A stretch of 64,000 nt of DNA from Amoebophrya sp. A120. Lineage: Eukaryota > Protista > Dinoflagellata. Positions 17,536-64,000 of the stretch are shown here, piece by piece; position 1 is the first letter of the stretch, and each line of letters opens with the position of its first letter. The position numbers were made by a program, and so were the translations under genes. The stretch lies in contig CAJINV010000001.1 in assembly GCA_905178155.1 (NCBI GenBank), positions 5,536,757-5,600,756 on the forward strand, given 5' to 3'. The notes under the pieces are model-generated. The model saw only the letters and a program-made list of their open reading frames with translations, ran no database searches and was not told where the DNA came from.

Positions 17536-17607
17536 GAAGCGCAGCCAAAGTGACCAAGCTTCTAAGAGGCGAAACCTCCAAACGATGAGGCCTCGAAACG
17601 CCGAAGG

Positions 17608-18705: not shown

Positions 18706-18739
18706 CGGGGCAGCAACGTGCGAGACGAAACCGCGAAGC

Positions 18740-41621: not shown

Positions 41622-44600
41622 CTACCCCCCGCCAAACAGCGCCGGCGTGTCCCAGCCTTCCACCGCTTCGCCCGGCAGCGGGGGGTGGTCCTGGTCGACC
41701 TGAAAGCGAAGGAACTCGGCGCCGACGGTGGAAGTGGGTAACTCCGCAGCCAATCCGCGGACCTCCTGCAGAAAATGCCGCAGCTGCGCCGGTCCGTCGG
41801 GCACCGCGGTAAGCTGCTCGCGCATCGACTCGAGAAGGCTCGCGCCGGGGAACAAACTTCCGGCAAAGAGATGCAGCGCCGCCAGTTCTGGCCGCTCTCC
41901 GTCCTTCTCCAGCGCCAAGTCCCGCGGAGTCCTCGGCCGCTGCTCTGCTTTGTTGGTCGGCGCGAACAACCGAAGCGGTCCGAAGGCGCCGGTCCAGCCA
42001 AAGACCTGCTCCGCCTCGAAGTTGCTCACGAGCAGTGCAACCTTTCCCCCGGGGTCCGTGTCGATCTCGAGAACGAACTCCGGCATCTTCGTATGCAAGA
42101 AAAAAACTGTATAAGTGTAACTCTGTCATGCAGAACATCCAACAGAGTTACGCCTGTCATGCCAGACAACCATGAAGTCCTCTTTTCACTTGTGTTTTCC
42201 CTTAATACAAGTTACACATGACAGGTTGTCTCTGTCATGTAGAGCAAATTTGTGTTGCTGTCAGACAAAGAGAGTTCTTACACTAACACAGTTTTTTTCT
42301 TGGATACTTCGCTGCTTTCGCAAACGGATCGCATCCCGGCGCCGCGAGTGTGCACGCAAAGTCAAGGGTCGCGAGCACGGTGATCTCCGAAGTGCTTCGA
42401 CCCAGCGTGCGGGGCAAGTCGACGAAAGCAACCTATATTTTTTCGTAGGAGAATGAAAGTGTCCTTGAAATGTAGAAAGTAGGTTTGTGGAGATTTCGGA
42501 AGCTGGCTGGCAGGTAGGAGCAGCTGAACAAGCAGGCACTTCTTGCGCAGCTAGGCATAAAGCCATAAACACAACTACGTATATCAATCTGGAAGTAACA
42601 GAGGTCGGCAGGCTCTGGTCATGCACGAGCCCGCCACACATCATTTCTGAAAAGTACGCCCATAGAAAGCCACGCACTTACCTGGGAGAAGTCGCCGTAC
42701 TTTTTTCCAGCGTTGCCGGGCTGCTTCAGCCACTCAGCCAGGTCGCTTAATCCGCTGGAGACTTGTGGCGCTGTTGGCTGCATTGACGCAGACTCCTCGA
42801 CATCGCGTTCCTCCTCGAGCTCCTGCTCGAGCTCTCGCTCATGCTGGTCGCTGCAGTTCGCGCGGTGTCCGGGTTTTGCCAAATTCGGCGCGACCTTGTT
42901 GACACGGTCAAGCAGCTTCTCGGCGATCGGGTCATGGTTCTGTATCTCGTGGCGGAGCCGTTTCTGCGTTAACAAGGTAAGCTTCTCGGGGTTCCGGGGA
43001 TTTCCGTACAGGTCCGACAGCAGCGCTTTTTCGGTCTCCACCCCCGCGTCCGCGTAGAGCTCAAGGAAGCTGGCTAAATTACTGTCCTGCGCCTGTGCCT
43101 CGGCCTTGGCGTTTCGCAGAAGTCTGCTCTTGCGGATGCACAGTGCGCTTTGACTGACAAGCGGGCCCATCAACCTTCCACACTCTTCTACCGTGTTCTT
43201 GCTATGCATTGCAAATACGCCAGAGTCAGGACTTTTGTGATGCAAACTTCATCTGGATGAGGGAAAGAACACCTGTAAGAGCAGACACGTACGACAAGGT
43301 TTATTGAGAATAACTGCTCCTGCGTTTCGCGCACTAAAAATTACGTCTTCGCATGACAAAAGAAGCTCTGCCTTTGTTGATGACCAATAGACCAGAGATA
43401 TTTTCCAGAATGCCAGAGAAGCACCACGCGTTCCACTTTTCCAGGCCTGAACACATGATTTGCATTTGATAATTCCTTGCCCACTGCAAGACTGCGTCAA
43501 TGTCCTTTACATCCAAGTCCGCCTGCTCGACGGTGCCCGCACTGGAAGCCGAAGCTGGCGCGTTTCGCAACTGCTCCAGTTGGCGTCGACAGTTGTCGCG
43601 TTTTTTGGTCAGGGAGCCATCCGCATCGCCATCGTCCTCGATCATTTCGTCGAGGCTTTTCATCGTTCGTGTAAGCTTAGCCATGTCGCCCTCCTTCTTC
43701 ACCTTGTCTGCGTTCTTGACTGCATCGAGCTGCTTCGCCACTTCGGCCGCAGCGATGAAGTTCACGATCTGCCCGCGGCCGACCTGGCGGGCGCGAAAGC
43801 AGGTCTGGCGGAGCTTGTCGAACGTCATGCCCTTTCCCAAAGTTACAGCGCACTTGCAATTTGGGGGCAGCGCGTCGAAGTTGGACCCCCGCAGATTCTC
43901 GTCGCTGATGTACAACAGGCACCCCTTCATGCTGGCCACATAAGGCGACTATGCATTGCAAATAGGTATCTCTGGGTCTGGCTGGATGCGAACTGGTGAT
44001 GCTTCAATAATGGATGACGCAAACTTCTGATGCTTAACATTCGGATGCAAACTTGTGATGCAGACTTGGGAAGAACGGGCAAAAGTCTGTGTTGCCCTAT
44101 CAGCAAGAGAAGACAGGCGATCTTTGATCGCCAGGACACTGCATTTCCCATGTAGACAAGAAGGTGCGAAAAAGTGCATTGCAGGTCCTCTACAGACGCA
44201 AGATATGGCACAACGCACTTCTCTGTTTTCTCCCAGACAGAGACCAGTGACAACATATTTCCAATTGGTAGCGACTCACTGAAAGCCATTTCTATGCCGC
44301 TACGGAACAGCACCCGGCGCTGGTGCTTCTCGTCGAAAAAGACCGCGGCCTTCGCTCCAGTTGTTTCTCTCAGTTTCAGCCAGGCAGCGCAAAAGTCTCG
44401 GCTTGACTGGTCCAAGATGAGTGCGCCGCCATCTAGCAAAACGTCGAAGGCCTGGAATTCCCCGCCCAAAAGTTGCAGCACCTGGGCCGTTACATCCTTC
44501 CCAGTGGCGAGCTCCTCGCAGCGGCTGTTTGCTTTTTGTCGCAGCCGCAAAAGCTGGAGGCCTTTGGTTGCCAAGCCCGGCAGGTTGCGCTGCTCAATGG

Positions 44601-47600
44601 TTGGCGGCGCCACTACCTTGAGATCATCGGTTCCCGCAAAACCCAAAGTGACGCCCTTGCTCCCCGGCGCATGCGGGTCCTTTACCAGGTCGCCCGCCGT
44701 TGCGCGAATGCTTCTTGGAAATTGGCGCGCCTCTTTGGGAAAAACCCGCTTGCTCAGAAAGAAGTCCACGACGGCCATGCTTTTCGAGAAGACCTTCACG
44801 ACCTTGCGGAGGCAGAGCTGGTCGTCGAGGTTGATCTGGTGCAGGTGCTGGAGGTCGTGCGCGTAGCTGTAAAAATGGTCACCCAGGACCTCCATCCACT
44901 TGTCGTAGTACCGCGCGCCCTCGTGGTCAGGTAGGCACTGGAGATCATCGAAAACCTCGCGCAGCTGGTCCTCTTCGAGTCCGCGGTGGTAGTAGTGCGC
45001 GACAGTCAACATAATCCCGGTGTCCGGATGGGCGTACTCCGTCCGCTCCGCCGGCTTTCCCTTGGCTGCAAAAGGAACCGCCATACGATGCGAGGGCCGG
45101 CCAAGGTGCGCCCCGTACTCGACCCAGTGACGCTTGACCAATACCGTCCGCAGCACTTCGTGACTAAGGAGTCCGCAGTAGATCCGCGCCAGGTCGCGCG
45201 TCTCGTCATCTGGTAGCCTGGCGAGGTGTTCCGTGGGATCTTTCTCCAGCACGGCTGCCTTGAAATCTTCGCAAATGTATTGACTGTTGACGTCATCGAG
45301 GTACCGGAACCTTGGCGCAATCTCATCCTTACAAACCCGCGAGGCGACATCCTTCTTCAGCTGCTCGTAGCATTCGTCCTGTTTGGCATGATCGAGCAGT
45401 CGCCAGGGCAAGAAAAAAGCGCTGGTTTGGCTCTTCCTCCGAATGATCTCCTCGTTCGCGGCGGTGTCCACGTGCACGACGTCGGGGCCGAACCTCTCAT
45501 CTTGCAGGTATGAGATGCCGAGTTCCGATATCCCACAGAAAAAGACCGACAGGTCATATTTGTAATGCAAAAATAAATACACAGGAAAATCTGTCATGGG
45601 CGAGGCCATAACATCCTGTTTAGGGCACGCAATACAGATTTTTTTGTCTATTTATTTTTGCATTACAAATATGACCTGTCGGTCTTTTTCTGGGGGATAT
45701 CCGAAGCAAAGCGCAACACGTCCATGGCGGCCCGGTACCTATCACAGTGAAAAATGCCCCCCACCCCTGAAATTGCAACAATTTGTGATGCGAAGTTTCC
45801 AAATGAAAGCTTTTTGTCATGCATGAAAGGAGTAAGAATCTTTCTGATGCAGATTCTAGTCGTGTTTCGCATCGCTTGCATGACAAGCACCGCTCTTGCT
45901 GGGATCTTTTGCAATACAAACTTTTGCTATTCACGATCGGAAATCTGTGATGCTGATACACGCAAGAGGGCGAATGTTTCATTTGGAAAGATTTGCAATA
46001 CAAATGCTTTCAAGTTCGGGGGTGGGGGCATTTTTCATTGTAATAGTACCGCTCCTCACCTTTGGCAAGTGTGCGCGGCTTCCCAATCGTGTACATGAGC
46101 TGAGTGCGGGGTGCAAGAATTTCGTCGCTTTCGTCTAGGTAGTCTCGTGTTTCATCTTCCAGCAAGCAAAAAATCTCGGTCAGTGCCGCCAACGTTGCCT
46201 CGTCACCGCGATGCTTTTGTTGCCCGACGGGTGCACCAGGACTAGCATCAGCATCTTCGATCCCGGCGACCAGTTCGATCACCTTGTTCTTCAGGGACAT
46301 GCAGTCGGACTATCCACGACAAAAATGCCTCTCCGGTATAGCGACCTCGCTCTAACGTAAAGTCCAGGGAGCAGTAGGTGAAGAAAACTAATCATACCAA
46401 AAACTCCTGCTGCTCCCTTTGGGTAAACAAATAGCACTGCGCCACTGCAAAGCCACTGTAGGTGCAACCGCGTGACGCGAAAGCGCCTGTCACTGATGCA
46501 TGTCGGTCTGGTGTGCTTTTGCGCGTGTACGCGAGTGCATGCTTTTGAGCGTATGTGTGCGCTTTTCCGACAAAGTCAGACAGACGGCAACTCAAGATCG
46601 CTATACCCAGTTGTATGCTTTCTGCCTCGGATACTGCTGGGGCCATTACCAAAACGCCTTTCTGCGTGCGCAGCTCTCGAAGGTCGGAAAGGAGCTCAGC
46701 CAGTTCGTCTGCGCTGCGCTCGTGGTCTCTACGGAAGAATAGCGACTTATCGACCTTAAAACAGCCCCCACGCCAGGTATAAAAATTTTTTGCGCTTTTG
46801 TTTCCAAAACCACAGTATACTCTTTTTTTCGTATAATTCCGCCTTGATAAAGTAAACGCAAAAACTCATGCGCCGACGAAGATGATGCAAATCATAACGG
46901 GATTTATTTTGGGCACATTGTGCACCGTGGTGGGCCAGCGTGTTGCTGCGCCATTTATTTATTCCTGGGGAACAAGGGAGCTGATTTGAATCGGATAAGG
47001 CACCAACCTCCTCCGAAGCCATCCGCCGAGTTTATGCTGCCAGTCCTTCGCGTTCGTCGCCAGCTGCGAACCCAGAACAATAGCCCGCGGTAGGCATTCC
47101 GTGCCCTTTCTCGACGAGAGCAGAAGCACAACGGCCATGATGACGCTGGTTTTCCCTAGTCCCATGGAGTACTCAAGCAGTCGGCTCTCCGTGCCTGTCA
47201 CAAACTCCACCGCGATTCTCTCCTGCAAGGCCCGCACACGCAGGTCATTTTGCACCTCAAAAGCGAGCACTTCCGGCCATTGCTCCAGATCTGACCAACC
47301 CGTCTCCTTCAGTTCTTGCAGAAGCGGGTCATCCCATTCTCCCTTCCGCATTTTTCGCAGGATCTGCCGCGAGCGCTGGAAGTTGCGAGCTGCGATCAAA
47401 AACTCTCCAATGCTGGTTCGCTGACGAACAGAGAGGGAGAACTGCTGCTCTTCTGTGCCTGCCGTCGGGAGGCAATCAAGGTCGTCACACCACATCCCGA
47501 TTAAAGACGAGCGCGCCGCGGTGGATACCAGACCACACTTCAGAGCAATCACATCGAAGATACTCTCGTACTCTTGCCGGACTTCCTCCCATACCCGGTC

Positions 47601-50600
47601 CATTTCGTTAGCGTAGTCTAGTAGAGCCTTTTTTGCGACCTCCAGGTACTGTGCGCGAAGTTCTGGCCTACTGCTCAAAGTGTTCTCTTCCTCCTGTCGT
47701 TGAATTTGCAGCGCAGCGTCTTGACTTTCGTCTAGTTCCTGATGAAGAATTTCGGCCAGCCCCCGGTATTCCTCCTTGACAGTGACGGGCGGCAGCTTTG
47801 CAGGTATTTGTGTCCTCGGCGAAGTTCGATCAACTGCAAATACGTCTGGGTCTGGGAAGAAGTTATTATAGTGTTTTTAGCCTCTCCATATATGAGAAGC
47901 GGACATCTGTATTACCTGGTCGGGCATGACACATTATTTCATCTTGAGGGATTTTGCACAATGAGAAACTACCATAAGAAGTCGTATTTTTGCATGACAA
48001 AGTTCGTGGCGGTTATTTTCGGCTTCATGCCTGACAGATAATTTAGTATTGGTTTATTCCAAACGCGCAATACAGGTTTGCAGTCTCCCAGACCGAGACA
48101 TGTTGGCACTTCATAACTACTGCCACTCGCCCCGGTTTTCGAAGTCGCAGAGCATTTCTGGTTGAATGCAGTTCCGCTAGAGGTGGCGCTTTTGCTCATT
48201 CGTCGTCTTTTTCTAGAAGGCGATGATCCAGCAGCAGGCGACTCGCTAGAACCGGACAGACCGCGCAACTCCGCGAGTGTAGGCTTTGCGTGTGTGATCC
48301 CATTGCTGAGCCCGTGCATCGCGCGCTGATTGTGTGACCCCATTGAAACAGAAAGTTCTGAGCCCATACCACTCACTGATTCGTTGTGAAACAAAAAGTG
48401 TTGTCCGGCTTGCGAAGTCCCAACATCTTCTTTGGAGTCGCCAAAAAATGCGTCGACTTGTTCGTGCTCAATCCGCTCCTTCGCGCGCGCAAACGCCTCT
48501 TCGCGCGCTTTCGCATTTTCGGGCGACGCTGGCTTCCTGGGCGCCGAGCTTGCGGCCTTCTGCAGATCGCGGAACCACTTCGACAGCTCCTTGTTTTGCC
48601 GCCAGCGGGTGACGAGCGTGTTCACGCTTGCAGCAAGTTGCGACCCTGTCTCTATCGGCGCGTGCAACAGAAGGGCGCCCGTGACTCGGGGGGGAAGATT
48701 CTTTTCCGTCAGGATGGAGGGCGGCTTTTTGCTGAAACTGTCCTTCACTTGCTTCGCCAATCCGTCCCGCAGTAGCTGCTCCGCGAACTTTTCGGGTGTG
48801 AGGGAGGTTGTAGTCGAGGAAGCTGCAGGAGCCTTTTTGTTTCCCTTGGCACGTTTTCCGGACACAGGCACAGTTTTGCTGTCGACTTTTTTCTCCGGCT
48901 CGTCCACCCCAAAGTTGATGTTCTCGAGTACAGTAATGATTTCTTTTATCACAATGAAAAATGCCCCCGCTCTAGGACTAGTTCAGCAGAGCAGTGGTGC
49001 ATTCGGGTTCGCCTACGGAGAATGCGACGCATTTGTCCCTCGGAAATCAAAATGTCAGGCAGCTCAAGCAGGACAGACATACCGATCGTCTAACTAGCGT
49101 GTACCGCCGGGCAACATAACTTTGCTTCACTACTCTGACCTAAAAATTTGACACGCTAATCCACGCATGGCGGCAAGTGATTCTATAGGGACTTTTGCAA
49201 TGCATAAACTAACTTCCACGCGCCGGGACGTGGGCGTTTTTCAGTGTGATATGTTTCCGGAGTTCTTCTTCAGAATACTCGTGAGCAGCCGGAACGTCAA
49301 ACTTGCGATGTGCAGGCGCCGCAGGAAGTTTCGTCGGGCGGTTCTCCCCACCGTCTTTGAAAGATCGCAACCAGAGCAGCACCCTGAACATCTTGCGAAA
49401 GCTCTCTGCGTTCCGAGGGTAGTCCAACTGCAACCGCGCGAAAAGTGTCCGCAGCCGCAGGGTGCTCGTGCCGGTACTGGCAAGCGTCAGATCGTACAGC
49501 TGGATAAAATATGCATTGCAAATATGTCTGGGTTGGAAAACCTGTGATACTGAATGAGCATGATAACAATTGCAGCGGTTGCATTGGCAGCTAAGCAAAG
49601 CATGACAAGTTTTGGGAACGCTCTTCGATGCCTAGCACGCATTGGTATTCCAAATTGGTTTTTTGCATGACAGAGGAAGCTGCTCTTTTGCTACTCAAGC
49701 AACACTTGCTTTTCAGGAATGCGATACACGCATTCATACGCTCCACTTTTTAACACCCGAGCATATTTATTTTTCGCATTCGATATAAAAAAATCAGCAG
49801 CACCAGAATGCCCGCCTTCCTCGTCGACACATAGCTCGCGACGCCGCGTTTGCAGCTTTTCGACCAACTCCGGAATGGGCGCCAGGAGCAGGCTGGCGGT
49901 GCTGGCATCTTGCTCGTCGCTGGTGTCCAGTAGTAGCTGGCCGCCGAGCGTCGTCCGGGCCTTAGCGTCGGCAATTATGCTTTCCAAGTCGTCCTCGGCC
50001 GGCCCTTGGTCCTCGTCAATAGCACCGTGTGGCGAGTCCGGTAGCACTGGAGACCAATGGCGGAGAACAGACACATCCTGCCCGTGGTCACTTTCTACTT
50101 TTATTTTCCCGCCAGCAACGAAATACGCGACGGCCCCGCACATTCCGGCCACGTTCTCCAGGGTCACCCGCTGCAGCTATCCTGATTAAAAGTGCTCCCA
50201 CCCGATAGTCAAGATGCCAATTTTGCAACACAAATGCAGACATTTTGCGGATCACGCGGCCTTAAAAGCTCCTATATCTGGCGTAGCGAAGGTTAGCAGC
50301 AAGGATAGCCGCATCACAACACCATCAGCTTATCCTTTCTGATGCTGCCATCCTGATTCTGTAAGAAGGATATTTGTGTTGTGATGCTAAAGAAGAATAT
50401 AATATTTCTTTGTGTTGTTGTAAGACGTCTCTGCATGTAAGAAGAATATTTGCGTTCTTGCGCCTCTGTAAGAAGGATATTTGTGTTGGTGTAAGACGGA
50501 CTCCTGCTTGCAGTATCACAAATTCCGATTATACACGACTGCAAACGCTTTTCTTCTTGATGAGGATACACATTTCCAATCTCTCTGTAGACACACTTCT

Positions 50601-53600
50601 GCATGACAGCTCTGGGGTGGGGACAATTTCGCTTAGGATAGCAGCTCTTCCGGTGTCATCCGCTCAATTGGGGGCCGGCTTTCTACTCCGACCAGGTACG
50701 CCCGAAGGTTTCTCCCGTTCACGCGCGAGGCAGAGACGTCACTCAACTCCCGGGGGCGGCTCGCTTCCAAACTGTTCGAACCCACGCGACGGAGGGTTTT
50801 GGTGATTTCGGCGAAACAAAGCGACACAAGGAACCCAATCGCCGGCGTCAAACACAGGGGCTCAACCGGGGACATCCACACCCGGACCCGGCTGCGCTCG
50901 CTTCTGGCATCGGGGGCGCCCGCTCCTCGCTGCGGGGAAAGCTTCAAAACCACAAGCAGGACCCTGCGCGCGTCCTCGATCTCCGCGCCGCCGAGCTCCA
51001 CACCGTGGCCGGCACGCAGCAGCTGGAGCCCTGTCGCCGTGCCCGTTAGCCCGGTCAGCCTGTCGGGGAGAAGGCGGGACGTCAGGAGGGACAGGTAGGC
51101 CAGGTAGTAGGTGGCGGCCTGGCTCCTTGCCCGCGGTCGCAGCGCTCCCAGCTCGTCGACGACATCGATCACGAAGTAGCCCCGAACATCATCCAACATC
51201 AACGTCGTTCGCCCGCTCGCGTTATCAAATGCAAATTATATGTCTGGGCATCGAAACTTGTAATGCTGAATGGTCAAGATTGAGCACGCCTTGAACTTGA
51301 AGTGCAGTGCAAAATGACAAATTTTTCAAACGCTTTCTGATGCGCAGCACGCATTACAGGCTGCGACTTTGCATGACGAGAGTGTCGTGGTGCTACTTTT
51401 GGTTCTTTTGCTCCTTTTTTATGCAATACAGATTTTCTAGAAATGCGATCATGCAATACAGATGCAACCTTTCCAGACCCAGACATATTTGCAGTGCATA
51501 CATGTCCCGCTTCGCCTCGGCATCCGGCAGCAGCAGTACACGGTTGCTGCTGGCCCCTGCTTCATCCCCGGGCGCTGCAAGAACGAGGCCGCTCCGCAGC
51601 CCCTGCAAAGTGCCTAGCCTCTGGTCTTCGGAGACGCACCGGCCGTCGAGCTCGGGCACGCTTACGGCGTTCCGCTTTCTTGGTCCAGCGCCTCCTGCTC
51701 CGCTTCGCGCGATGTCCCCCACATGGAACGATATCCCGGGATACTGTGGAAGCTCCACGATCAGCAGTGGCGTCTCGTCTGCGACACCTCCTTCGCGCTC
51801 GTCCGGTGCAGGCGCATAAACGTGTAGCAGCTGGCGCGCCGCCAATCTTGAAAAAACCCGCTCGTGCAACGTTCTCACGGCTTCCGCTTTCGTTGATAAC
51901 AGCCGCCGGTTGGTTCGCAGTTCGAAAAGGGTGCCGGATTCTGGTCGGAATTCGAAAGCTGCCTCACCTCGTGCGAAGCCGTCGGCCTTGAAAGTCCTCG
52001 GGCGAAAGCTGATTACCAAATCCTCCGGGTCCGCGCCGCTGCTTTTGGACAGCCATAGAGAGTGCCCCGCGCTGATGTCGGAAGGCTATCAAATTCCAGA
52101 ATGTGTCTGTGTCTGAATGCAGCTTTCATAAGCATCTATTTCACGATCACGGGCTTTGTAAATTGCCATGCAGGGTCCAAACATATGAGCATACATTTCA
52201 ACTGCTTTTATACAGCCGTGAAATGTACAAATATGTATGAGTCCTGCTTTAGAGTAAAGTGTTCCAGCCCGGGGGTTCGAGCGGGGTGTCCCGACCCTCG
52301 GGATTCGGGATTTGCAGCACGGCCCGTCCCGTGTTGCAAAAAGAACCCGAAATCCGTATTTTTTGCAGCATGGCCTGCTCTGTACTGCAAGTCGGGGCTC
52401 GAGTGGAGTGTACCGTCCCCCGGTTTTCGTGATTTGCAGCACGGGCCAAATAAAAAAAGCCGATACTTTGCGGTTTTTTTGCAGCACAGCGAGGGCCATG
52501 CTGCAGATCGGGGTCTGAGCGGAGTTTCTCGTCCCCTGATACTCGTGATATGCAGCAAGGCCCGGCCCGTGCTGCAAAAAGAAACCGATCTTTCACAATT
52601 TTTGCAGCACGGCTGGGGCTGCGCTACAAATCGGGGCTCGAGCAGAGTGTCCCGTCCCCCGGGAATCGTGATTTGCAGCAGGGCCCGAGCCGTTCTACAA
52701 GAAGAAGCAGATATGCCGGAATTTTTGCAGCACGGACCGGGCCGTGATGCAAATCGGTGTTCGGCCGGAGTGCCCCGTCCCCCGGGACACGTGATTTGCA
52801 GGTACTGCAAAAAGAAGCTGATATCGCAAAAACAAACCGATCATACTTCTGATTATTTGCAGAACAGCCCGGGCCGTGCTGCAAATCGGGGCTCGAGCGA
52901 AGTGCCCCGTCTCCCCGGGACTCTGATTTGCAGCACGGCCCTGCCCGTGCTGAAAAAAGAAGCCGACATTCCGGATTTCTTGAGGAACGGCGGGCCGAGC
53001 TACAAATCGTGGCGTGAGCGGAGTGTCCAGTCCTCCGGGCCTCCTGATTTGCAGCAAAAAGATCCCGACATTGCAAAAAGAAGCGCACATTTCAGAACTT
53101 TTGCAGCACGGCCGGGGGCGTGCTGCAAATCGGTGTTCGAGCGGAATGCCCCGTCCTCGGGGACTCGTTATTTGCAGCACGGCCCGGCCCGTGCTGCAAG
53201 AACAAGCAGATACTGCAAATCGGAGCTCCGGCGAAATGTCTCGTCCCCTCGGGCCTCGTCATTTGCAGCACGGCCCGGAACCTGCAGTAAAAAGAAGCCG
53301 ATATTCAGGATTTTTCGCAGCACGGCAGGCCGTACTGCAAATCGGTGCTAGAGTGGAGTGTCCCGTCCCCCGGGACACGTGATCTGCAGAACGGCACGAG
53401 GACGCGTGCTTCAAAAATACGAAGGCAATATTTCAGATTTTGCGCAGCGCGGCAGACTGCAATCGCTGCGCGCGCCTACCAGACGCCAGCCTATGCGCCC
53501 GCACGACCGGCACCATAGCCGCGCGCTACATCTTGACACCCCCAGACACAGACACGCCCGCACTTGATACCGGTAGCCCGGTTTCTCCATTCCCCTCGTC

Positions 53601-56600
53601 CTCTGGCTGCTCGGCTTGGTCCGGGTCGGCGATTTCAGCAGCTGCAGCTTTGTCGACCTCCGCCCCATCGCCGAACACCCCCGCCCCGTCGACCAGCACT
53701 GCCCTTCGTCCGCTGCGGTCCTCGATTATCACCGGTGCTGCATCTGGTTCTGCTTGGCGAATCTCGAAGAACGTGCCCAGATCGTCCACCGGGTGGCTGC
53801 GAAAGCTCTGGCCGTCCCCACATGCTTCGAAGGAGAGGGCTGCCCCGCTGAAGAAGTCGCGAAAGCGCTGGTGGTCAGAGATGCTGCGTGGCAGGCTCTT
53901 CACCGGTGAGCCGTTGACCCGGAAGACGCCGGCGACGACGTCAACATCCAGCACATACCCACCCGGTGCTATCAAGTGCAAAAGTGTCTGGGTCTGGAAG
54001 AATGCATGTTTGTCATGCTGGTCTGGCATGACTCTTCAATCTGCCATGCACGTTACGCAAGAGCAACGCTTTTATGTCATGCAGAAACGCGCTTTGTCAT
54101 GCAGAGTGGGCAACACCTAGAAGCTCAGAAACTTGTCATGCCGGGCCAGCACTTGTGGCCCCACCATGATACGCCACCCATCGCCACAAGGTTCCAGACC
54201 CCGACACGCTTGCAACCCATAGACGCCGCCCGGTACCAATTTGCTCCGCCGTCGTGGTACTTGCGCCAGGCCTGCCGCCGCGTCGGCTTTCCCAGTCCGA
54301 CACGCTTCCAGCTGGTTCCCGCGGACGACACCACCGCCGCCACGCCCTGCTTCCAGTAGCCCCGCACGAACTTCGTAACGCCCTCGGACTTTGCGGCCGC
54401 GGCCGCCCGGTGCAGCGCCGGCGCAAGGCGGTCCGCCAGTCGCTCGGCGAAAAAGTAGGCGCCGCGCCGCAATGGACTCCCGCCGTCCGACTCCAGCAAG
54501 CCACTACCACCGTAATCGACCACGATCGCCCTGAACGTCAACCACTCGCGAAGATTCTCGGCCACGCCGTTTATCATTTTTGAAACGGCCCCCCACAGTG
54601 TAAACAGAACAACTCTCGAAGTGCCAGTGCAAGATAGGCCTCTCAGAGGCCTGTCTGGCACTGGCACTGATATTTCGAACTCAGAGGCTCTGAGTTCGAA
54701 ATAAACTTCGAACTCGAAGCGCTACACTTAAAGTTACGCTCTAGCAGCAGGCGACGCAATTCAAACCCAATTCCGCTCGCTACAACACAACCTTTCTTGC
54801 GTTGCAGCTACCAATGATGAAAAAATAGCAATTACGACACGCCTCTTGGCGCTTCCGATACACAAATATACAAAGATCAAGATGAGAGTCCCAAACTAAA
54901 CCCATTAAACCCCGAAAACCCTTGCAGCGACGGACCGCGACGGTACTGAAGAGACGAAGTCACGACGCCCGCTGGTGAAGGCAAGTCGGATCAGGTGCGA
55001 CGTGCCGGTAGCTCATAGTGCCCCTCCTAGCTATCCTAGACCTAAATCTATACCAAGGAATGGAGACCCTTCCTCCCGAAGCTGCTTGGTGCCACTAGGC
55101 CCCGGGGCGTTTCCGATGAAATCGAAATAGCAGCCCTAATCTTTCTAAGCCCTAGAACCCTAGCTGCGACGGCCGCGGAGCCGGGTCGTTCGTTGTAGGA
55201 AGAAGATCGTAGACCGCAATGGATGTCGCTACAGGAGAGAGATCGCTACGTACTCAATTTCATGCACTCAACATCATGAGTCTATATGTAACTACGCCGA
55301 AATGTAAGTACTCAACGATAGAGAAGAGAGGCGCCAAGAAAAATCGCCGGGAAAAGCAAACTGCTTGGCTATAAATATAATAGGGCCCAATGAAAGAAGA
55401 TAAGAAACAGAGTAAGAGAATGACGAAGCCGTTTGAGGAAAGCGCTAGATCATGCGAGTGCTCTGATCTATCCAGGAGCGCTTCCTGCCAGTTCCAATGC
55501 TTGCAGCGGTGCTTCCGATATAAAAAGAAAAACTGTAATCCGGAGCCCTAAAACAAACGCGTCAAATTCTAAACCCTTGCAGCGACGGTCAGGGACGGGT
55601 GCATGCTTGATGGAAGAAGGCACGTCGCCCGCAGTTGAAGGCAAGTCGGAGCCAACAGGTGGACGCGGCGGCGCGCGTGTCTTTGCCGGGCCTATGTAAT
55701 CTTACGCCTAGACCTATCCGTGGCGGAAAAAACACCCGGATGAGAGAAAAGCTGCCCGGGGCCAGCAAGTTGGGCCCCGAGAGAGCTTCCTTCTGCCTGG
55801 GGCCAGTTGGGCCCGGGGAGGTGGGTTCTTCTACTGCGACGCCTCCGGTCTGCGCCGTCAAATATAAACAAAGCGAACCACTACTGGGACAAGGGTGGGG
55901 GGCCGGGTTTCATGCTGATACTTTTCGAAACTGCCCCGGCATGCTGCTGCTGGTCCTCTGGGTGTCCGATAAGAAGCGCGGGGTCTTCTGCGAACGTCAA
56001 GGAGCCCGCGACCGCCACATCCAGCACACGCCTGCGATGCAGCTCGCTGCCCGCGTCACCCGCACCGCGCAAATCGTCGAGCCACTTGATTGCCGTCCTC
56101 CGCACCAGCATGAGTAGCTTTGTCGCGTCCGTCTTGCGCGAGGCCGGGCTGTGCTCGAACAAGTGGAGGCCGACGAAACCGGACACATAGAGCAGAGTCG
56201 TTTTGTCCCATGCGTTTTTCGAACTTCCCAAGCGCTTCCGTACCTCTCCAGCAAGGTCGTGCCGCCGGGTGCTTTCCGGGTTCACCAGGTCGCGCGACGT
56301 GGTGCGGGCCCACCGTAGATTCTGCTCGAAGTTCTTCTGGTCCTCCGCCGCGGCTCTTTTCCCGCTCCCGCCGGTAGCAAACTGCACGCCATCGAGAAGT
56401 CCCGCCGTCTTCTTCTCCGGAGCCGCCTCGGACTGCGGAAATTGCGTCTGCTGCAAGAGTAGCTGTGCATCGCGAAGGCTGACAGGGTCCCCAACCTGCC
56501 AGAGGACCAAGCAGACGAAATGCGCAACGGTCTCGCTGTTGAGATTGACATCGCCCCGGCCGATCATCCCGCACAACCGCGCCAGCTGGTGCTTCGAACC

Positions 56601-59600
56601 GGCGCGAAGCCTGCCGAGCTGCTCCAGCGCCCTCTCCTGCGTGCCACTACCGGAAGCAATTCGCGCGGCGCAGGCTTGGTTCTCATTGTGGTCGGCCCCT
56701 GCGAACTCCTGCAAGCTCTTGAAACTTTCCTCGCTGATCACGTACTGCAGCAGCGACGCAACTGGACCGAGGTCCCAGCTGGCGCGGGGCTTCCACTTTC
56801 GTCGGTCGGCGTGCGCGTGCCCCGCGGCCATCTTCCTCGCGAATGTTTCGCCCGCCGCGGCGCCCCGAATCTTCGGAGGCAGGTAGAGGAGATCGAGGTC
56901 CATGCGGTTCTCCCGGATGATCTGGCCGCTCTTCAGCTTCTTCCACTGCACCGCTTTGGCCTCTGCAGCCTTGCCGTTGAGCGTCCCGAGCCGGCAGAAC
57001 AGCGGGGCCCGGCCGGTCGTAGCGTCACACTTGTGGCCCGCATCTTCAAGAGCCTGGCGGAGGGGCTCGAAGTCGTCCCATGCCTGCGTCCTGCCGAAGT
57101 ATCGAATGCAAATATGTCTGGGTCTGGAAGATTCCGGGATTTGTGATGCATATTTTGTATGGTCCATGATGCATGTAATGCATGACCTTTTTTACCCCTC
57201 AACCACAGTCACCCCCTTTACGAACAAAGCCTCAGGCTTGATCTCGGAGGGATTGGGTCAAGCTCTAACGCGGGATCGGGCCCGAGGTGAGGACACGTTA
57301 GAGTGGCTGCATGTCCTGGTCCATTCCGTGGCTTCCAAGCAGCAATTCCACCGTAAGACAACCAGGCAAAACGACGAACAAGACGATAGGACAAGGACTG
57401 ACTAGGTCTGAAGGACTGGGGTCTCCAGCAGTCCTGGCAAAAAAAAGTAGTCGCTATGCCTGCCCGTCTTGGAAAACCCTCGAGCCAAATTGCTGTGGTT
57501 TCCAACATCACCGGCACATCGCCAGCTTTCGTCCTTCTTCGCGGCGTGATCCTCGTCACCTGGTAGTCCGGCTCGTAGTAAAATGTCAGCCTGCTGTCGT
57601 ACAGGTTTTGCTTTCTGTACCCCAAGAAAATCGGGAACGCCGCGTCAATCTGCGGGACTTTGCCCTGCAACTTCGACCGCAGCGGCATTAAAGGAGCGAC
57701 GCACTCCACCTGCTTCGGCCCGCGGGCGACCGCGGCTACGGTCAACGCGTTTCCACCGGAGGATAGTGTCTCCGAACAACAATATGGGACTGTGCTCGCG
57801 GCGTCGTTCGCGCACCACTCCAAGCACGGAGGACTCGATCCGGGCTTCGTCGACGCGAGTTCCGGTGTGCCGAACCGACACCACTTGACATACGCCGAAT
57901 CGACCCCATTGATCAACAGGGGCGTCCCGGCTTGCCCGAACTTCAGGAACAAAGTTCTCTCCAGCAATTGCGCGACGCCCCCGGTGTACGTCAGCATCGG
58001 CGCCCCGCCGGTTGCCGCAATCGCGAAGATGTCGTGCTCGTTTTGAAGCAATTTCGTGTCGTTCGTGCGCTGCTGGTAGGTCTCGTGGATGTTTTCCTGT
58101 AGAACATCGATCGCTCGAAGATGTTTTGATAATTCCGAGATAACAGCGCCACCTTGACGAAAAACTTCTTCTAGGGTGGCAACGGCGCGGCTAGGCAGTT
58201 CGCGAGCACTAACTCCTGCGTCATGTTGGTCGTGACCCGCGCGTCGGTGCCGAAGAGGTTGTCGGAGCGTCTCGGAACGATGATAACTCTGTCGGTTTCT
58301 AGATCGACAATCAAACAGACCAGATTCTGTGAATTTTTACTCAGCACATCCGGACACATCCTGCAAGTTTTTTGACAGCACCCGTCGAAGACTAGAGAAA
58401 AGCATCCCCCCTTCGCCGCGTAATCTGCGCAGCAGCTCAGTGGCGCAAACAAGCCACCGGGTGGCGGTCGGAGATATTCACCTGATTCATTATCTTCGCA
58501 TTTCTCCAAGTCCATCGCAACCGCTATCGTTTCCACCGACTGGTGATACACCAAAGTCGCCAAAGCCTCGCTTGTGTTGTTGTTCAAAGGTAGGAACGGG
58601 TCGGTGGTCGTTGTGCTTGTCGTCGTCACGTTGTAACTTATGCCGGCCGCCTGATTCGCTTCTAACTGCAACTGCGCTTCCTTGTGTTTTCTCACCTTTT
58701 CCAGCGCCAAGTCTAGTGTCTGGAAAGCCTTCGGCGCCTCGTGGACTTTAATTTTCCTACCGTTAGACCACTCTAGCAACAGGTTCTCCTGGATCGAGAT
58801 CGTCACGCCCACGGTGATGTTTCCGACTAGAACCGTTTTACACCGGATCAAGTCGTGGATGATGATGTTCGCCAGCACTTTTGTTTCAGACACTTCATTA
58901 CTCATCCGCAACACTCGCGCCCGCTCCGCCGTCGTGTTCAGATTGTCCAACTAGAAGCGGCACCGACACCGCATGTGCGTCTTCACGCCCGCGCGGAGGA
59001 AGTTCTTCCCCGCGACCAGGATGTAGTCGTGCTGCGCGACAACTAACGGCTCGATCGTGTTGATCTCAAGTGGCGGCTCGACGTTGAATTTCAAGCCGGT
59101 CGAGAGCATCATCGGTTCTTCAAAGCCCTCTGTGAAAGTGGAAACGTTGTATGGCCGCGGGTCTAGCTGCGCTTCGGACGGGTAGACGCGTAGGAATCTG
59201 CTCAAGTACTGCACCTGGACCTCCTGCGACCAGGACTGGGTGGGGTTAAGCGCCGCGCTGGTCACGCAAGTAGTCATCGTCTGGCTCACGGGAATTGCCT
59301 CCACTGGTCGGCCAAGCCAGAAGATGCATTTCACTGTCGCGTCTTGCTCGTCGTCGGGGAGAAGGTTCTGATGCTTGATGGACACCTCTGCACCGCCATA
59401 AGTCGAACCGAGAAACGGGGTGAGCGAGTAGAGCATCGGCCTCTCCCGGACTTTCACCGACAATAAATGTTCCGCCACGTGGAAGAAGGCGAAGCGGAGG
59501 GTATCTGATGGTAGAATCAGCTGCAGCTGCACTTTCGCGGTTCCGCCCTGCGACTGCAAAGCGAACTCCGCTGCTTCATCCGTCAACGTGCATTCCGCGT

Positions 59601-62600
59601 TGTTCTGGTCGATCACGACCGCTGGGCTCGTGATGGAATTCTCAAAAAAGCAGCACAACATCCCCGCGACCAGATTCTTCCCGCGGATCTTCAACACCGC
59701 CGTCGCTGCCGCTGCGCGCGCGATCAGCCGCGGCGCGATGGAGAGGACGCGGATTCGAGCCGTGAGCGGGATCATCGCGTCCTTGTAAATCTTCAAAACC
59801 GGATCCATGGTCTTCTCCAACAAATTACTGAACACTACCCCGTCCGTGGAAACTTGAGTCTTGACTTTCGAATCAGACGGGAGGAATTCCGGCGTGCGGC
59901 ACTTCACTGTGGTTGGATTCAGGTAACCCACGTTGTCCGGTCCGGAAGCCACGTGCTTCCCGCCGAAGATGCAGGTCAAGTACACGGCGTCGATGAAATT
60001 GCGCCCGTGCAGCGTGACCCACTCGTAGCCCTCAACGTTGAATTTCGTGGGGTACACAGCTAACAGCTCGGGCTTCTCCGTGAAGTAGAAGTTATGCGTC
60101 GGGCCCATCTGCGCGGCGCCGCATTTCAAAGTGAGAGTCACTCGCAACGCGGAGGTGAGCCGGGGGATCGTGACCGTCATCAGCTCCACTGTCTGCACCA
60201 ACGCCGGGGTCGGCATAGAATCAAAGTACAGCTCGCATTCGGTGCTACCGATTGGAAATAATTCGCCAAAAATCGCCAAAGACGCGCAAGGCGTCAGCGC
60301 GTAGAGAGCTCGTGAAGCTGTGGGCGAGTTTCTTCGGGACGCTGTAGTACTCGAACGGGAGTAATGGGGTTGAAAGGCTGATAATCTGGATTGACGTCTG
60401 CTGGGAGAAGGACGCAGGGACTCGGCACTGGACCCGCGTGTCGTTTTTCACATAGGCGTCCGTGAGTAGATCGCCAATCCGACACCACACGTAGAGATAG
60501 CGGACTGGGGTTAAGTCCAGTTGCCGTTCGAGGTCTGTGTAGTGGAAGTTGTGCCCCTCGACGACCAAACTGTAGTCCCGCGTGCCCTGCTGCGGCGCGA
60601 GACTTAGCGGGTTCGCCGCGACGAAAATCGCGGAGCTGGGTCGTCTCACATCGATTTCCACGTAATTGGTTTCCTGGTTCACATCGCACAGAAACAACGT
60701 CACCCGTGCCTGGCTGTTGTAATCTCTTCTCATAAACCCCGCTTTGACGAACCTTGGAGAAGGTCGCACCTGCAATGAATCTTCGCACGCAAAATCGTGT
60801 CGGAAACGATCTCCACCGGGAAATCGTTGTCGTCGCCGCCGATGGGATAGCCACTAAAGCGAACCCTTAAGGCGGAACTCATCGCGTTGTAGTCATCCCT
60901 ACTGGGGATCAATTGATCAAATTTGTTCTTCATGTGCTCCTTCGCGCGCCCAATGTAGCTGTAGAAGTTGTGCCCGTAAATGGTGATCGTGTTTTGCAAA
61001 TATGCGCCGAGGGAATCCGGGTAAATTTGCCTGATTTTCGGCAACCGGTTCGGCGGAATGAACCACAGCGAGTTTTGCGCGATCGTCGTCGGCGGACAGG
61101 CGACGGACACGAGGAACTTCTCGAAGAAAAGCTTCTGCGGAAACGCGCACATAATTTTCGTTGAGTCGACCACCGTGGAGTGCTCCGACACCGCGTATTT
61201 TTGCTGGTCCATGAGATCAACAATCTGGTTCCCCGGGCAATCCGCTACGTAGTCGGAGGAGAACAAGCAATTGCACCCCGGGACGAAATTGTCGCCCATT
61301 GCCGATCTCCTTGTAGCCCTTTTCGAAGATATCGCCATACTGCATTTCGTCCAGTCGGTACAACCCTCCCTCCGTTAAGCCCGGAGGGGCTTTTAGTTCT
61401 TTCAAAACTGGCTCTGGGTTCACGGTTACTTTGTTAACGAAGAACCAGGTGACACCGTCGAACGAAGCGCACATTTCGGCGGACAGTAAAGTTTGGCTCC
61501 GCAGCGTGAAGACCGGAAGGTCGCAGTAATGCCTGGCCGCCGCGCCGCCGAACAGTGACTGCGGGGAGAATTCCCCAGCCTGGGTCGCGAACTTCTGGTC
61601 GACGGCCAAAACCCTCCCGGCGCCTAACAGATCTTCATCTTCAAAGGGCTTCCTGATGCCTATTCCGCATGACAAATGCTTGCCCTCTCCGCGTAACACA
61701 AACTGGATTCCTGTAGTTGTTGGTCACGCAATACTTATACAGACTTTTTTGAAATCCAAAGACAGCATGACAAGTTGCAATCTTCCAAACCCAGACACTT
61801 TTACAATCCATACGAAGGTGTGCGCTGCAACATTTGTGGCCAGTTCCTCCGGGATCGGCTGCCCAGCAGACTGCGCCAGACTGTACGCGAAGATTGCGAA
61901 CGCCTCCCGTTGCTGCGTCAATACCGCGTCCTTTGTCAACTCAAATATTACGACTCGCTGACTGTCGGGATTCTCGGGGAGGATCTTGATGTACGGAGTG
62001 AAGGTCAGCGCATTCAGAGCCTCGGCGGTGGTGGAGCCGGTGGCCGCCTTCGCGGATGAGCTGCTAGCGCCTGCCGCCGTTCCTGGGACCCCTGCGCTTT
62101 TTCCTGCTTGCATCGCTTTGACCATCGCCTTGCCACGTGCGTCGACCTCCTTCCAAGCTTCACACGTCTTTCGCTGCGAGTCCTTGCATGCCTTCTGCAG
62201 CTTCTTGCGCAAAGCCTCCAACTTTGGGTCGGACTTGGCCAGGGCGAGCATTGCAGCCTTCTCGGACTCCGGGCCGCCGCCGTTGCTGCCCTCGCGTCGC
62301 TGGCCGAGATATACCTCGAGGGAATGCAGGCTCTTCTTCTGGTCCGCGAGCGGGAGGCAGAGGCTCCCGAGAAAGGCCGCAGCATCGAACTCCAGGGGGA
62401 ACTCTCGCAGAGTCGGGTGAAGTTCGCAGGCGCACCGGTCCAAAATCAGGCAGCAAGTGAGGCCGCAGAGAATGACGGCGCTCAGCCCGAGCAGGTCCTG
62501 TTTCTGTGTGGAGTCGCCAGCGCCGTCGGCTGTGTCGCCACCGCTGGCACCGTGCAGCTCTTGGCCCAACTGCGTAGAGCGCTGCAGCAGCTCGGTCAGT

Positions 62601-64000
62601 GGCCCCCGCAGCAGCCGCCGCCCGTCCTCGTCCGTGGCTGTTAAATCGTCGAGCGCTTTCGCGGTTACTCGTCCGGAGTCGAGATAACCCCACAGGGCCG
62701 CGATGTTTTCCTGCACATCCAGCAGCGTTTCGGCAAAACCTTCGCGCCCTCGCTGCATCCGGGTGCGAATGCCTTGGATCCCGAGAAATCGACAAATGCC
62801 CAAGAGGTTGTGGAGGTTCGTCACGACGCGCACGACGTCGTCGTCTTCTTTCGGGGACTTGGATGCTTTCCCGCCTACCTTCGCCGGCGGCGCGGAAAGA
62901 TCAGCAGGCAACAATCGCCGCCGCGCAAAGTCGGGCTGCGGTTCCGGAGCAGTGGGCACACCTGAAGACGCGATCTCCGATGGCTTTGCAGTGGCTTCTA
63001 GCTGCATCTTCCACGATTCAATGCTGGAGATCGAAAACGGCCACTTCTCATCCACATCCTCCCGCGTTAGGGACACGGTGCAATCCGGCTGTCGGGGGTC
63101 CAGGGAGCTTTCGACCGTTCTGATCAAGTCGGTGGCCGCGTCGACGGCCTCGTTTGTCGCTACGCGCTCTGGGTCAAACGACGCGCTGGTACCTGGAGTC
63201 GGAAGATGGCAAGATGAGAGAGTAGACAACGTCTGTGTATAATGCGTGTAGGAACCGATGACTCACGGTGCCGCACTGCATACGGGGGCGTCTTACTTCA
63301 TGAGAAACGTCGAGTTCTTTGTAAAAGAGAATTGGAAGTATTTAGCTACACGTGGCTGCTGATCGATGAGGAATAAAAACGCATCTACGAGCCTTCTACC
63401 TTCATGTCTTTTTTGTAATTTCAACAGTCGCCGCGCCAGCTTTCGACTGCCCTCAATAAACGCTGATAGCCTGGTCACCTTCGTCAAGTCCTGCACGGTA
63501 AGTTCCTGGTCATCGGGCGCGGCCATCTGCTGGAGCTGCCAACACAGATACCGATGCCAAAGTCTTTTTGGAAGCAGTGGATCACCCAAAACTTGATCGC
63601 CGTAAAATTTCAAAATGGACCGAATCGCAGCCCACGAAGCACTCCGCCGCCAGCCCGAATGGTTATCGTACGGAACGTCGCGGACCTTGAACGTCGTCTT
63701 CCGGGTGTTGGGCGCCGGCTCAGCACCGGCCGTTTGCAAGAAAAGCTGTGTGATCATTTCCGTGTTCGATCCCGTGCTTGCACGCCGCTGCTGCGTCTTC
63801 CTCTTGGGCTCATTTATCAAGACGGCCGGCTCCGCCTCTTGCGCGCCAAAATCTAAATCGAAATCAAGCTCCTCTGCATAAAACTCCTCTTCAGCAGCTG
63901 CGCCCGGCATGAAGTCATCAGCATTATCAACACCGAAAGCGTCCTCTATGACGATCGGACTTTTTCCGTCTTTTCGTAGCTTCACCGCTGCGGCGCCGCG
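41622..64000 (-). CDS. Giant DUF3638/DUF3645 P-loop protein (5' end outside window), 16 introners plus GT-AG introns
   Basis: Family motifs in the expected order: KVRD..WRRSASW; LPENP..VVIFEL; LGRLRAG..LWQVG; VNGSPVKSLP; PEVLAFEVQND..MGLGKTSVI; LDESDEIL; YGAHLGRPSHRMAVPF..EYAHPD; ERELEQELEEER. Frames link across each introner. Domain names from motif recall, not a search. Confidence 0.85.
42092..42306. mobile_element. Introner (215 bp)
   Basis: TIR CAAGAAAAAAACTGT..AGTGTAA; perfect DR CTTCG; spliced AKAAKMPEF. Confidence 0.93.
43203..43471. mobile_element. Decayed introner (269 bp)
   Basis: TATGCATTGCAAAT...ATTTGCATTTGATA; DR CTTGC/ATTCC; frame restored by element+5. Confidence 0.8.
43950..44270. 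mobile_element. Introner (321 bp)
   Basis: Perfect DR GCGAC; diverged TIR (right end GGTA); spliced FSESPYVASM. Confidence 0.88.
45529..45699. mobile_element. Fold-back introner (171 bp, ~60-bp TIR)
   Basis: TIR includes CAGAAAAAGACCGACAGGTCATATTTGTAATGCAAAAATAAATA; perfect DR TCCGA; spliced FASELGISY. Confidence 0.95.
45740..46045. mobile_element. Introner, C-rich TIR (306 bp)
   Basis: TIR TGAAAAATGCCCCC..CCCC; perfect DR GTACC, which allows a GT-AG reading 45739-46049; spliced EERYRAAM. Confidence 0.95.
46311..46633. mobile_element. Decayed introner / GT-AG intron (323 bp)
   Basis: TATCC...GGATA ends; DR 2/5; in-frame GT-AG 46310-46634. Confidence 0.7.
46748..46997. mobile_element. Decayed introner / GT-AG intron (250 bp)
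   Basis: TATCG..AAACAGCCCC / GGGAGCTGATTT..GGATA; DR 2/5; in-frame GT-AG 46746-47003. Confidence 0.7.
47828..48115. mobile_element. Decayed introner (288 bp)
   Basis: GTCTGGGTCTGGGA / TCCCAGACCGAGAC; left TAT mutated to GAT; DR AGTTC/ACTAC; in-frame GT-AG 47834-48120. Confidence 0.85.
48947..49206. mobile_element. Decayed introner (260 bp)
   Basis: Left end TATCACAATGAAAAATGCCCCC matches the 45740 family; right TIR and DR eroded; in-frame GT-AG 48943-49213. Confidence 0.75.
49510..49785. mobile_element. Introner (276 bp)
   Basis: Perfect DR TAAAA; spliced DFFIQLYDL. Confidence 0.9.
50178..50640. mobile_element. Introner with internal short repeats (463 bp)
   Basis: TATCCT..CCCACCC / GGGTGGG..AGGATA; perfect DR GCAGC; spliced PEELQRVTLE; internal CTGTAAGAAGGATATTTGTGTTG twice. 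Confidence 0.9.
51223..51500. mobile_element. Introner (278 bp)
   Basis: TGCAAAT..ATGTCTGGG TIR; DR CGCGT/CATGT; frame restored. Confidence 0.88.
52087..53569. mobile_element. Large introner (1483 bp) containing a palindromic satellite
   Basis: TATCAA..GTGTCTGTGTCTG / CAGACACAGACAC..TTGATA; frame restored; GT-AG reading 52086-53570. Confidence 0.85.
52270..53470. repeat. ~122-bp tandem array (~10 diverged units), two palindromes per unit
   Basis: GATTTGCAG recurs at roughly 120-bp spacing; TTGCAGCACGG-N5-CCGTGCTGCAA hairpins. Confidence 0.95.
53970..54221. mobile_element. Introner, family B, inverted relative to 8208/30912 (252 bp)
   Basis: Reverse-complement alignable with 30912-31163; DR GGTGC/GACGC; spliced YRAA(P/S)GGYV. 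Confidence 0.9.
54572..55920. mobile_element. Large introner (1349 bp) with hairpins and internal duplication
   Basis: TATCA..TGAAAC..GGCCCCCCAC TIR; DR CCGTT/CTTTT; element+5 removal joins ORFs 55881-57167 and 54125-54667 in frame. Confidence 0.85.
57100..61812. mobile_element. Giant cargo-carrying introner, family A (4713 bp)
   Basis: Matching TIRs, perfect DR CGAAG (57095-57099, 61813-61817); arms align with the left and right parts of 33503-33764; spliced host reads AAHTFGRTQAW. Confidence 0.92.
57190..61643 (-). pseudogene. Captured IPT/TIG-repeat surface-protein fragment with ShK-like Cys motif
   Basis: Repeated P..G...I.G.NF...C.F...C units (TITIYGHNF, VTLHGRNF..LTCIFG..VKCRTP, PFLGSTYGGAEVSI); CEDN..C..C..CQKTCRMC; no start codon, at least 4 frameshifts, in-frame TAG at 58951 and 58171, no introns seen. 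Confidence 0.85.

Follow-up and report, generated by a model that had tools for sequence, protein, structure and literature searches.

We analysed a stretch of 64,000 nucleotides from the dinoflagellate Amoebophrya sp. A120 (contig CAJINV010000001.1, positions 5,536,757 to 5,600,756 of the forward strand), which we call the window and whose own coordinates we use below. The window is rich in elements of about 250 to 300 nt with inverted repeats that begin with TAT and with 5-nt direct repeats. One such element, far longer than the rest, interrupts a giant minus-strand gene with DUF3638 and DUF3645 domains. A prediction made earlier from the sequence alone (the original prediction) had described it as an ordinary introner of about 262 nt, of a family called A, in which about 20 nt of the interior had been replaced by IPT/TIG-repeat coding sequence captured from another gene. 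This composite element is laid out as follows.

57095 to 61812, minus strand: predicted intron of 4718 nt, comprising the element and one copy of the direct repeat; it can slide by up to 5 nt, and a slide by 1 gives GT..TC.
57095 to 57099, no strand: left copy of the direct repeat CGAAG, read from the sequence.
57100 to 57188, no strand: left arm of a family-A introner (profile positions 1 to 89), which is the 3' arm in the transcript.
57189 to 61624, minus strand: cargo, a decayed internal fragment of a giant IPT/TIG-repeat gene, in host sense, with coding similarity from 61621 to 57305.
61625 to 61812, no strand: right arm (profile positions 94 to 262), certain over 61645 to 61812 and probable over 61625 to 61644, with small insertions of 3 to 6 nt.
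61813 to 61817, no strand: right copy of the direct repeat CGAAG, read from the sequence and exonic in the model.

The direct repeat is perfect (5/5), as originally described. The terminal inverted repeats (TIRs), which start at 57100 and 61812 (TATCGAATGCAAA and TATGGATTGTAAAA), match at 24 of 30 nt; both open with TAT, followed by seven variable bases and a run of A, as in introner elements, which also carry a border repeat of 3 to 5 nt. Pairwise alignment and a profile of 57 members place the composite in a repeated intron family. Its arms are collinear, do not overlap, and are 81% and 83% identical to the ordinary copy at 33503 to 33764 and to the reverse complement of the one at 7883 to 8145, two copies that are 79% identical to each other. 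Pairwise alignment put the element sequence lost between the arms at 18 to 19 nt, close to the original figure, whereas the profile put it at only about 4 to 6 nt, plus a 6-nt tandem duplication. We thus confirmed that the arms are two complementary parts of one Amoebophrya-type introner of about 262 nt, enclosing about 4.44 kb of IPT/TIG coding sequence. A composite of two whole introners was rejected because the junctions are interior rather than terminal. The two 55-nt ends are predicted to form a duplex of −52.4 kcal/mol, inside the span of −33.5 to −70.1 kcal/mol predicted for 12 other elements; no internal partner pairs better with either end. Contigs of the DNA run X1 join both arms across about 20 to 40 other letters, in keeping with a repeated family.

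A pairing of unrelated TIRs could produce a similar arrangement by chance, and we controlled for this with a pattern scan. The scan gave at least 174 stretches, kept as 162 loci (632 kb), the first 80 rows of which all came from contigs with the prefix JACKZZ01. Family-A copies in these loci were at most 85% identical to those of the window, so the loci belong to a related genome. Together with the window they supplied a control set of 177 paired elements. A 5/5 direct repeat was found in 141 of the 162 paired elements of 240 to 300 nt. The composite was alone in having one among the eight paired spans of at least 1 kb; another span had 3/5 and the other six had 0 or 1. When all ends were paired against all, 5 of 186 pairs of at least 300 nt had a 5/5 repeat, and all five were built of complementary arms. 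The composite is a single insertion, not a chance TIR pair. The span 49510 to 51500, a candidate long element, proved to be a false pair of two separate elements.

Four family-A copies in the related assembly (at loci L030, L062, L063 and L009) hold inserts of about 0.2 to 1.0 kb, none of which has a stop-free frame of more than 114 codons. The L063 and L009 inserts are flanked by duplications of 13 and 21 nt and have about 250 nt in common at 70% identity, a sign of another mobile element. Introners thus take inserts at a few percent of copies, and host coding cargo was met only in the composite. In both inserts (L009:11473-12727 and L063:3862-4492) the target duplication starts at a (C/G)TGACA-type motif, and the inserted sequence may be a mobile element that targets introners. 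The copies at L030:632-1465 and L062:571-1051 have perfect direct repeats and inserts of 0.2 to 0.6 kb that end in simple repeats (ATC, GAAT).

The gene that surrounds the composite can be read without a stop through 2459 codons, from 64000 to 46965, across 10 junctions and into the DUF3638 exon. In this model each inverted-repeat element is removed together with 5 nt, plus one GT-AG intron of 207 nt; for one of the 10 junctions the start was selected among four candidates. The parts nearest to the composite, and the exon in which the model ends, are listed below.

61813 to 63192, minus strand: host exon upstream of the element, from the frame model.
55921 to 57094, minus strand: host exon downstream of the element, present in RNA-like contigs of run X4 with this locus's alleles.
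54567 to 55920, minus strand: inverted-repeat intron of 1354 nt, which serves as an internal control and is skipped in one X4 contig.
46962 to 47876, minus strand: host exon with DUF3638, reached in frame by the gene model.

Deleting the 4718 nt joins the two host exons in frame (AAHTF-GRTQAW), as the original prediction had it, and the predicted spliced junction joins CACACCTTCG to GCAGGACG. A shift of one base at any host junction introduced 9 to 63 stops. Unspliced, the 4718 nt would end the protein 30 codons past the junction, before DUF3638. A host gene that had been dead for as long as the cargo would be free of stops with a probability of about 4e-5, a figure that assumes decay of the cargo in place and fails if the composite arrived recently. 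The best slide within the direct repeat gives GT..TC rather than GT-AG, and the nearest in-frame AG lies 16 nt beyond the inverted repeat, past a nearer AG that is out of frame; on both points our reading of the sequence bore out the earlier one. The flanking exons had been assigned to the DUF3638 family. The gene is indeed of that kind, but DUF3638 (PF12340, E 7.7e-16, at 46962 to 47876) and DUF3645 (43930 to 45651) lie in downstream exons, not in those that flank the composite.

Three introns of the host model exceed 1 kb (4718, 1354 and 1488 nt). The 1354-nt intron has TAT-initiated inverted repeats, a degraded direct repeat (3/5), palindromes at 54620 to 54703, an 80-nt repeat pair (54916 to 54990 and 55571 to 55650) and a longest stop-free frame of 95 codons, and it is unique in X1. 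Another element, of 1483 nt (52087 to 53569), has family-A-like ends around a diverged tandem array (52272 to 53453), and its removal keeps the host frame. Among the older elements of the host gene (47828 to 55920), mismatches between the direct repeats fall mostly at positions 2 and 3 of the left copy (plus strand). This copy is intronic and sits beside the 3' splice end, and at 48947 the mismatch creates an AG; selection on the acceptor may account for the pattern.

The cargo matches the IPT/TIG domain of Pfam (PF01833, E 2.7e-18), in agreement with the original prediction. A protein search over 1.84 billion representatives recovered two candidate parents among the annotated A120 models, P0002 (CAD7969974.1) and P0004 (CAD7969972.1), which are 91% and 94% identical to the cargo and are each sited on a contig of 1,750,138 nt. 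More distant relatives include dinoflagellate proteins of 2136 and 4837 amino acids. The cargo is an internal piece of a family of proteins of about 4400 to 4800 amino acids (P0044, P0078), and both of its ends fall inside coding sequence. These matches support capture of the cargo from a gene of the same organism and bear out the original view of it as a captured gene fragment. Its reading frame is broken by two TAG codons and four frameshifts (6 disruptions in about 1439 codons), located as follows.

58951 to 58953, minus strand: nonsense TAG, where P0001, P0002 and P0008 have Lys.
58171 to 58173, minus strand: second nonsense TAG, where P0008 has Asn.
Near 61330, 60800, 60310 and 58098, minus strand: frameshifts, from the protein alignment.

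Over 307 aligned residues there are 25 differences from the two A120 models; polarised with outgroups, 19 are derived in the cargo and 1 in the parent, and 5 stay unresolved. With 19 of the 20 polarised changes on the cargo side, in addition to the stops and frameshifts, this copy of a conserved gene is dead and neutral. It was absent from the metagenome and viral contigs searched, and the TIR pattern was absent from the viral contigs searched. The ESM Atlas gave only generic IPT/TIG clusters for the cargo, with recognition below threshold. Searches for longer proteins containing the cargo or the host exons found none, a result that the tool itself rates as weak evidence, and so yielded no homologue across the host junction. 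The idea of a canonical intron between about 58500 and 58330 was dropped, as P0008 aligns through it. A cysteine-rich stretch at 58500 to 58370, which resembles an ShK-type domain, is conserved in P0008 and has no Pfam match. The gene models P0003 and P0151 of strain A25 resemble the same IPT/TIG stretch, P0003 with many small gaps in the alignment, and decayed copies of the IPT/TIG gene may also exist in that strain.

The explanation towards which we lean, with confidence a little better than even, is a single-copy Pack-TIR in which repair-type copying enlarged a resident introner where it stood; the enlarged element is likely still spliced. As we infer the repair route and its timing, an introner would first have inserted into the coding sequence of the giant DUF3638/DUF3645 gene and made the 5-nt duplication. 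A break about one third into the element would then have been filled from an IPT/TIG locus, with the loss of about 4 to 19 nt of element sequence, as in the published gap-filling model (PMC8277862). The cargo has decayed without selection, as described above. In the pre-mRNA the ends would still pair (predicted duplex −52 kcal/mol) and bring the splice sites together, and the 4718 nt would be removed in the same way as the 250-nt copies, as the intact frame and the spliced 1354-nt neighbour suggest. The composite probably never moved as a unit.

Single-copy Pack-TIRs that arise by gap filling have small gaps and internal breakpoints and need no transposition (Tan et al. 2021, PMC8277862). Like them, the composite has two arms of one TIR element around a single-copy host duplicate of 100 to 5000 nt, with an internal breakpoint. 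Both of its flanks come from one TIR element, with at least 10 terminal bases covered; the internal sequence that is not transposon is the IPT/TIG fragment of about 4.44 kb; and identity to the parent exceeds 90% at the protein level (91 to 94% over 307 residues), with matching alleles in the DNA run X1. The element lost 2 to 7% of its length, against a median of 4.6% in Pack-TIRs (PMC8277862). A single copy with dead cargo therefore fits the in-place gap-filling route of that paper. Pack-TIRs were described in animals, whereas the composite lies in coding sequence and would itself be an intron; its parent, unlike those of gap-filled Pack-TIRs (PMC8277862), was not seen nearby.

The observations that weigh against this reading concern the template, the assembly, the transcripts and the host model, and we give each beside the alternative on which it bears. 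The cargo has no evident intron over about 4.3 kb, which speaks against a DNA template. The mean for this genome is 1.42 introns in each kb of coding sequence (PMC7789003), so an RNA template is possible, and P0002 diverges from the cargo after 58861, as it would with a parental intron there. The filler could thus be complementary DNA (cDNA), a reverse-transcribed piece of IPT/TIG mRNA inserted into a resident introner that is still spliced. The cargo has the same sense as the host, and there are six A residues at its 3' junction. One X1 contig lacks, length-exactly, the 207-nt canonical intron of the host (63193 to 63399), so that intron-less gene copies exist in the genome, and in the related assembly family-A copies have received nested inserts at comparable points of their interior. 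We nevertheless regard a cDNA filler as unlikely: both cargo ends lie inside coding sequence, far from the 3' end of the homologues of 4400 to 4800 amino acids; there is no long target duplication like the 13 and 21 nt of L063 and L009; and the parental introns may postdate the copy. A poly(A)-primed retrocopy is less likely, as coding similarity reaches 57305 and the homologues extend thousands of residues further; judged by these alignments, the cargo does not appear to be a 3'-anchored retrocopy. Also on the adverse side, no parent lies in the 64-kb window, past whose right end a 27.7-kb X1 contig extends, so the nearby-source bias of gap filling was not seen. Other genomic copies of several host exons (54222 to 63444) were present in X1, with many amino-acid changes and frameshifting indels; they may be decayed, intron-less fragments of this gene family, possibly cargo or retrocopies elsewhere.

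Copy number was assessed in X1 from 40 of 296 variant rows, and contig depth is a poor measure of it, so a near-identical twin might have escaped notice. A second cargo copy has the P0004 residues at all three positions tested (59861, 59858 and 59825), lacks the 3-nt and 6-nt insertions, as P0001 does, and at 58098, the site of the frame change in P0008, supplies an extra base. With these ancestral-like alleles it looks like the parent and not a twin composite; the idea that it was another decayed copy was dropped once P0001, P0004 and P0008 showed the ancestral alleles. The cargo allele of this locus stands at about 22x at 59655, against 22 to 28x in the unique flanks (a depth, not a copy number). 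The X1 reads fit one cargo and its parent, and mobility of the composite is unsupported. No further copy of arms with cargo was found in the window or in the 632 kb of the related assembly.

A mobile composite, built at another site and already decayed when it transposed whole into the exon, would agree with its intact TIRs and with its perfect direct repeat, the repeats being degraded in 6 of the 8 other elements of the host model, and an X1 contig that shares 57175 to 57602 and about 13 arm bases could be a second, partial composite. A120 also has multi-copy TIR introner families of 0.7 to 1.2 kb (PMC12130899, supplement 8). Transposition as a unit nonetheless seems to us quite unlikely. Cargo depth and alleles fit one copy and its parent, the introner-rich loci of the related assembly hold no cargo match in their 632 kb, and perfect direct repeats are the norm for the family; a cut-and-paste move could have left no twin. 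The broader idea that introners are self-removing gene vehicles, which carry kilobase host cargo to new genes and seed decayed fragments across the genome, is likewise quite improbable, and the vehicle role in the original prediction was not upheld, given dead cargo and no sign of another full copy.

The contig just mentioned is 1654 nt long and is the main difficulty for the assembly. It matches 57175 to 57602 with one mismatch and one gap, about 13 arm bases included, its other 1226 nt depart from the window sequence at the left arm, and it is the sole contig counted at 57275 to 57295, at 24x, about single-copy depth. No listed X1 piece spans either junction between arm and cargo, and both junctions lie within high-copy repeat arms. 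The cargo or its left junction might therefore be arranged otherwise in most cells, as an assembly or haplotype artefact. We consider this highly improbable, because the cargo has its own X1 alleles, distinct from those of the parent (58654 to 58991, 0 differences), and the two arms are collinear parts of the same element, which fits in frame and has a perfect direct repeat. The 1654-nt contig itself has arm bases adjoining cargo, and contigs drop branches beside high-copy repeats. It may represent a nested insert in the left arm, which would leave the anatomy unchanged, a second partial composite, a source locus that resembles the arm over about 13 nt, or a local misjoin.

Splicing of the composite was sought in several runs, none of them recorded as RNA; X4 is RNA by guess only. 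One X4 contig (depth 2.6) skips exactly the 1354-nt intron (54566 to 55921) and carries the alleles of this locus at 54503 and 55995. The gene is therefore transcribed and, on the evidence of this one contig, its RNA loses an end-paired intron of five times the usual length. Another X4 contig, also bearing the alleles of this locus, breaks off precisely at 57099, beyond which spliced and unspliced molecules would differ; since contigs cannot show RNA ends, it is no more than a hint. No joint of 57099 to 61818 was among the four listed for X4, X8, X9 and X7, with 59 joint rows outside a further listing and the X4 depth over the host (2.6 to 3.8) too thin. X8 and X9 gave arm matches and short partial pieces only, X5 gave 85 reads at repeat ends only, X6 and X7 gave no reads, and the unique sequence is absent from X5 to X7. 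The listed X4 pieces do not reach the 580 nt with which the upstream exon begins. A 247-nt RNA-like X4 contig matches 57255 to 57321 at about 89% with four single-base gaps, and may have been transcribed from the parent or from another relative.

The 4.7-kb piece could then be unspliced or rarely spliced, with the gene expressed as two halves or only just dead. Dinoflagellates have spliced-leader trans-splicing, which might serve the downstream half, and the RNA-like contigs lie mostly on that half, with the junction itself unobserved. Introns validated by RNA in this organism were analysed only at 40 to 1000 nt (PMC7789003). Failed splicing is very unlikely in our view, given the exact in-frame fit and the lack of decay in 2459 codons, the X4 contig that enters the direct repeat and stops exactly at its end, and the removal of the 1354-nt element from the same gene. 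An intact host frame together with a kilobase inverted-repeat intron removed in the same gene makes end-defined removal of a resident, enlarged introner likely, and with paired ends likely still directing splicing the enlarged element would have stayed harmless. Of the original proposal that introners take up kilobase cargo and are excised by their ends, the uptake thus stands and the excision gains from the intact frame and the 1354-nt intron; the role as a vehicle does not.

The combination has partial counterparts elsewhere. In the Amoebophrya genomes more than 60% of introns are non-canonical, so the missing GT-AG is ordinary here; these introns are spliced without a detectable U1 snRNA (PMC7789003). 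With the A120 introner elements (Farhat et al. 2021, PMC7789003) the composite shares TAT...AAA inverted repeats, a 5-nt direct repeat, non-canonical splice ends, a repeated family and insertion in coding sequence; it differs in being 18 times the usual length and in holding a host-gene fragment. That survey kept introns of 40 to 1000 nt only, and the part of the paper drawn on here mentions no cargo. Length alone is not new, since kilobase TIR introner families are already tabulated for A120 (Gozashti et al. 2025, PMC12130899, supplement 8). These TIR-bounded multicopy families of 0.7 to 1.2 kb (fam26, fam38, fam103) have interiors that are transposon-like or unassigned, fam38 with open reading frames similar to LTR elements between its TIRs, whereas the composite holds a host-gene fragment; capture of host genes is not discussed in the part of that paper available to us. 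Supplement 8 has no A120 match for TIG_, PF01833, IPR002909 or DUF3638. Some large families of short elements that show alignment spans of 4 to 16 kb and host-type domain matches may hide similar cases (PMC12130899).

Among systems outside Amoebophrya, Pack-MULEs are TIR elements that hold captured gene fragments; they have Mutator-type TIRs and target duplications of 8 to 11 nt, and the composite, with a 5-nt one, is not a Pack-MULE by this measure. Tgm-Express1 of soybean is a multi-kilobase TIR element that carries captured gene fragments within a transcribed gene, some transcripts of which are correctly processed, but it lies in a canonical intron that was already there, and splicing takes up its fragments as exons (PMC1947982), whereas the composite would itself define the intron. 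The nonconventional introns of euglenids, tens to thousands of nt long, are also paired at their ends and lack GT-AG, and their ends matter for splicing; they belong to a different lineage, have the motif CAG/CTG, and no captured gene fragment is described in the available parts of the sources (PMC11282704, PMC12501133). The available part of PMC12005148 has no mention of introners, and we found no description, in the open-licence papers searched, of an introner with captured host coding sequence. Known parts are combined here in a new way; the composite is no demonstrated gene vehicle. Elsewhere in the window, 17556 to 18740 and 18743 to 19715 are adjacent tandem-repeat arrays with strong AT skew.

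With cargo that is dead and apparently single, gene shuffling is not shown on present evidence. The locus is a natural experiment, in which the ends of a 262-nt intron have 4.4 kb of foreign coding sequence between them and the host gene is intact, and in which end-paired introns of 1.35 and 1.5 kb lie beside the composite in the same gene. If the 4.7-kb junction is spliced, the ends suffice, a sense-strand coding insert full of possible GT and AG sites is ignored, and such introns are recognised by their ends rather than by their length. The locus further suggests a role for introners as neutral shelters, within exons, for large duplications, and a class of introns that surveys limited by size miss.

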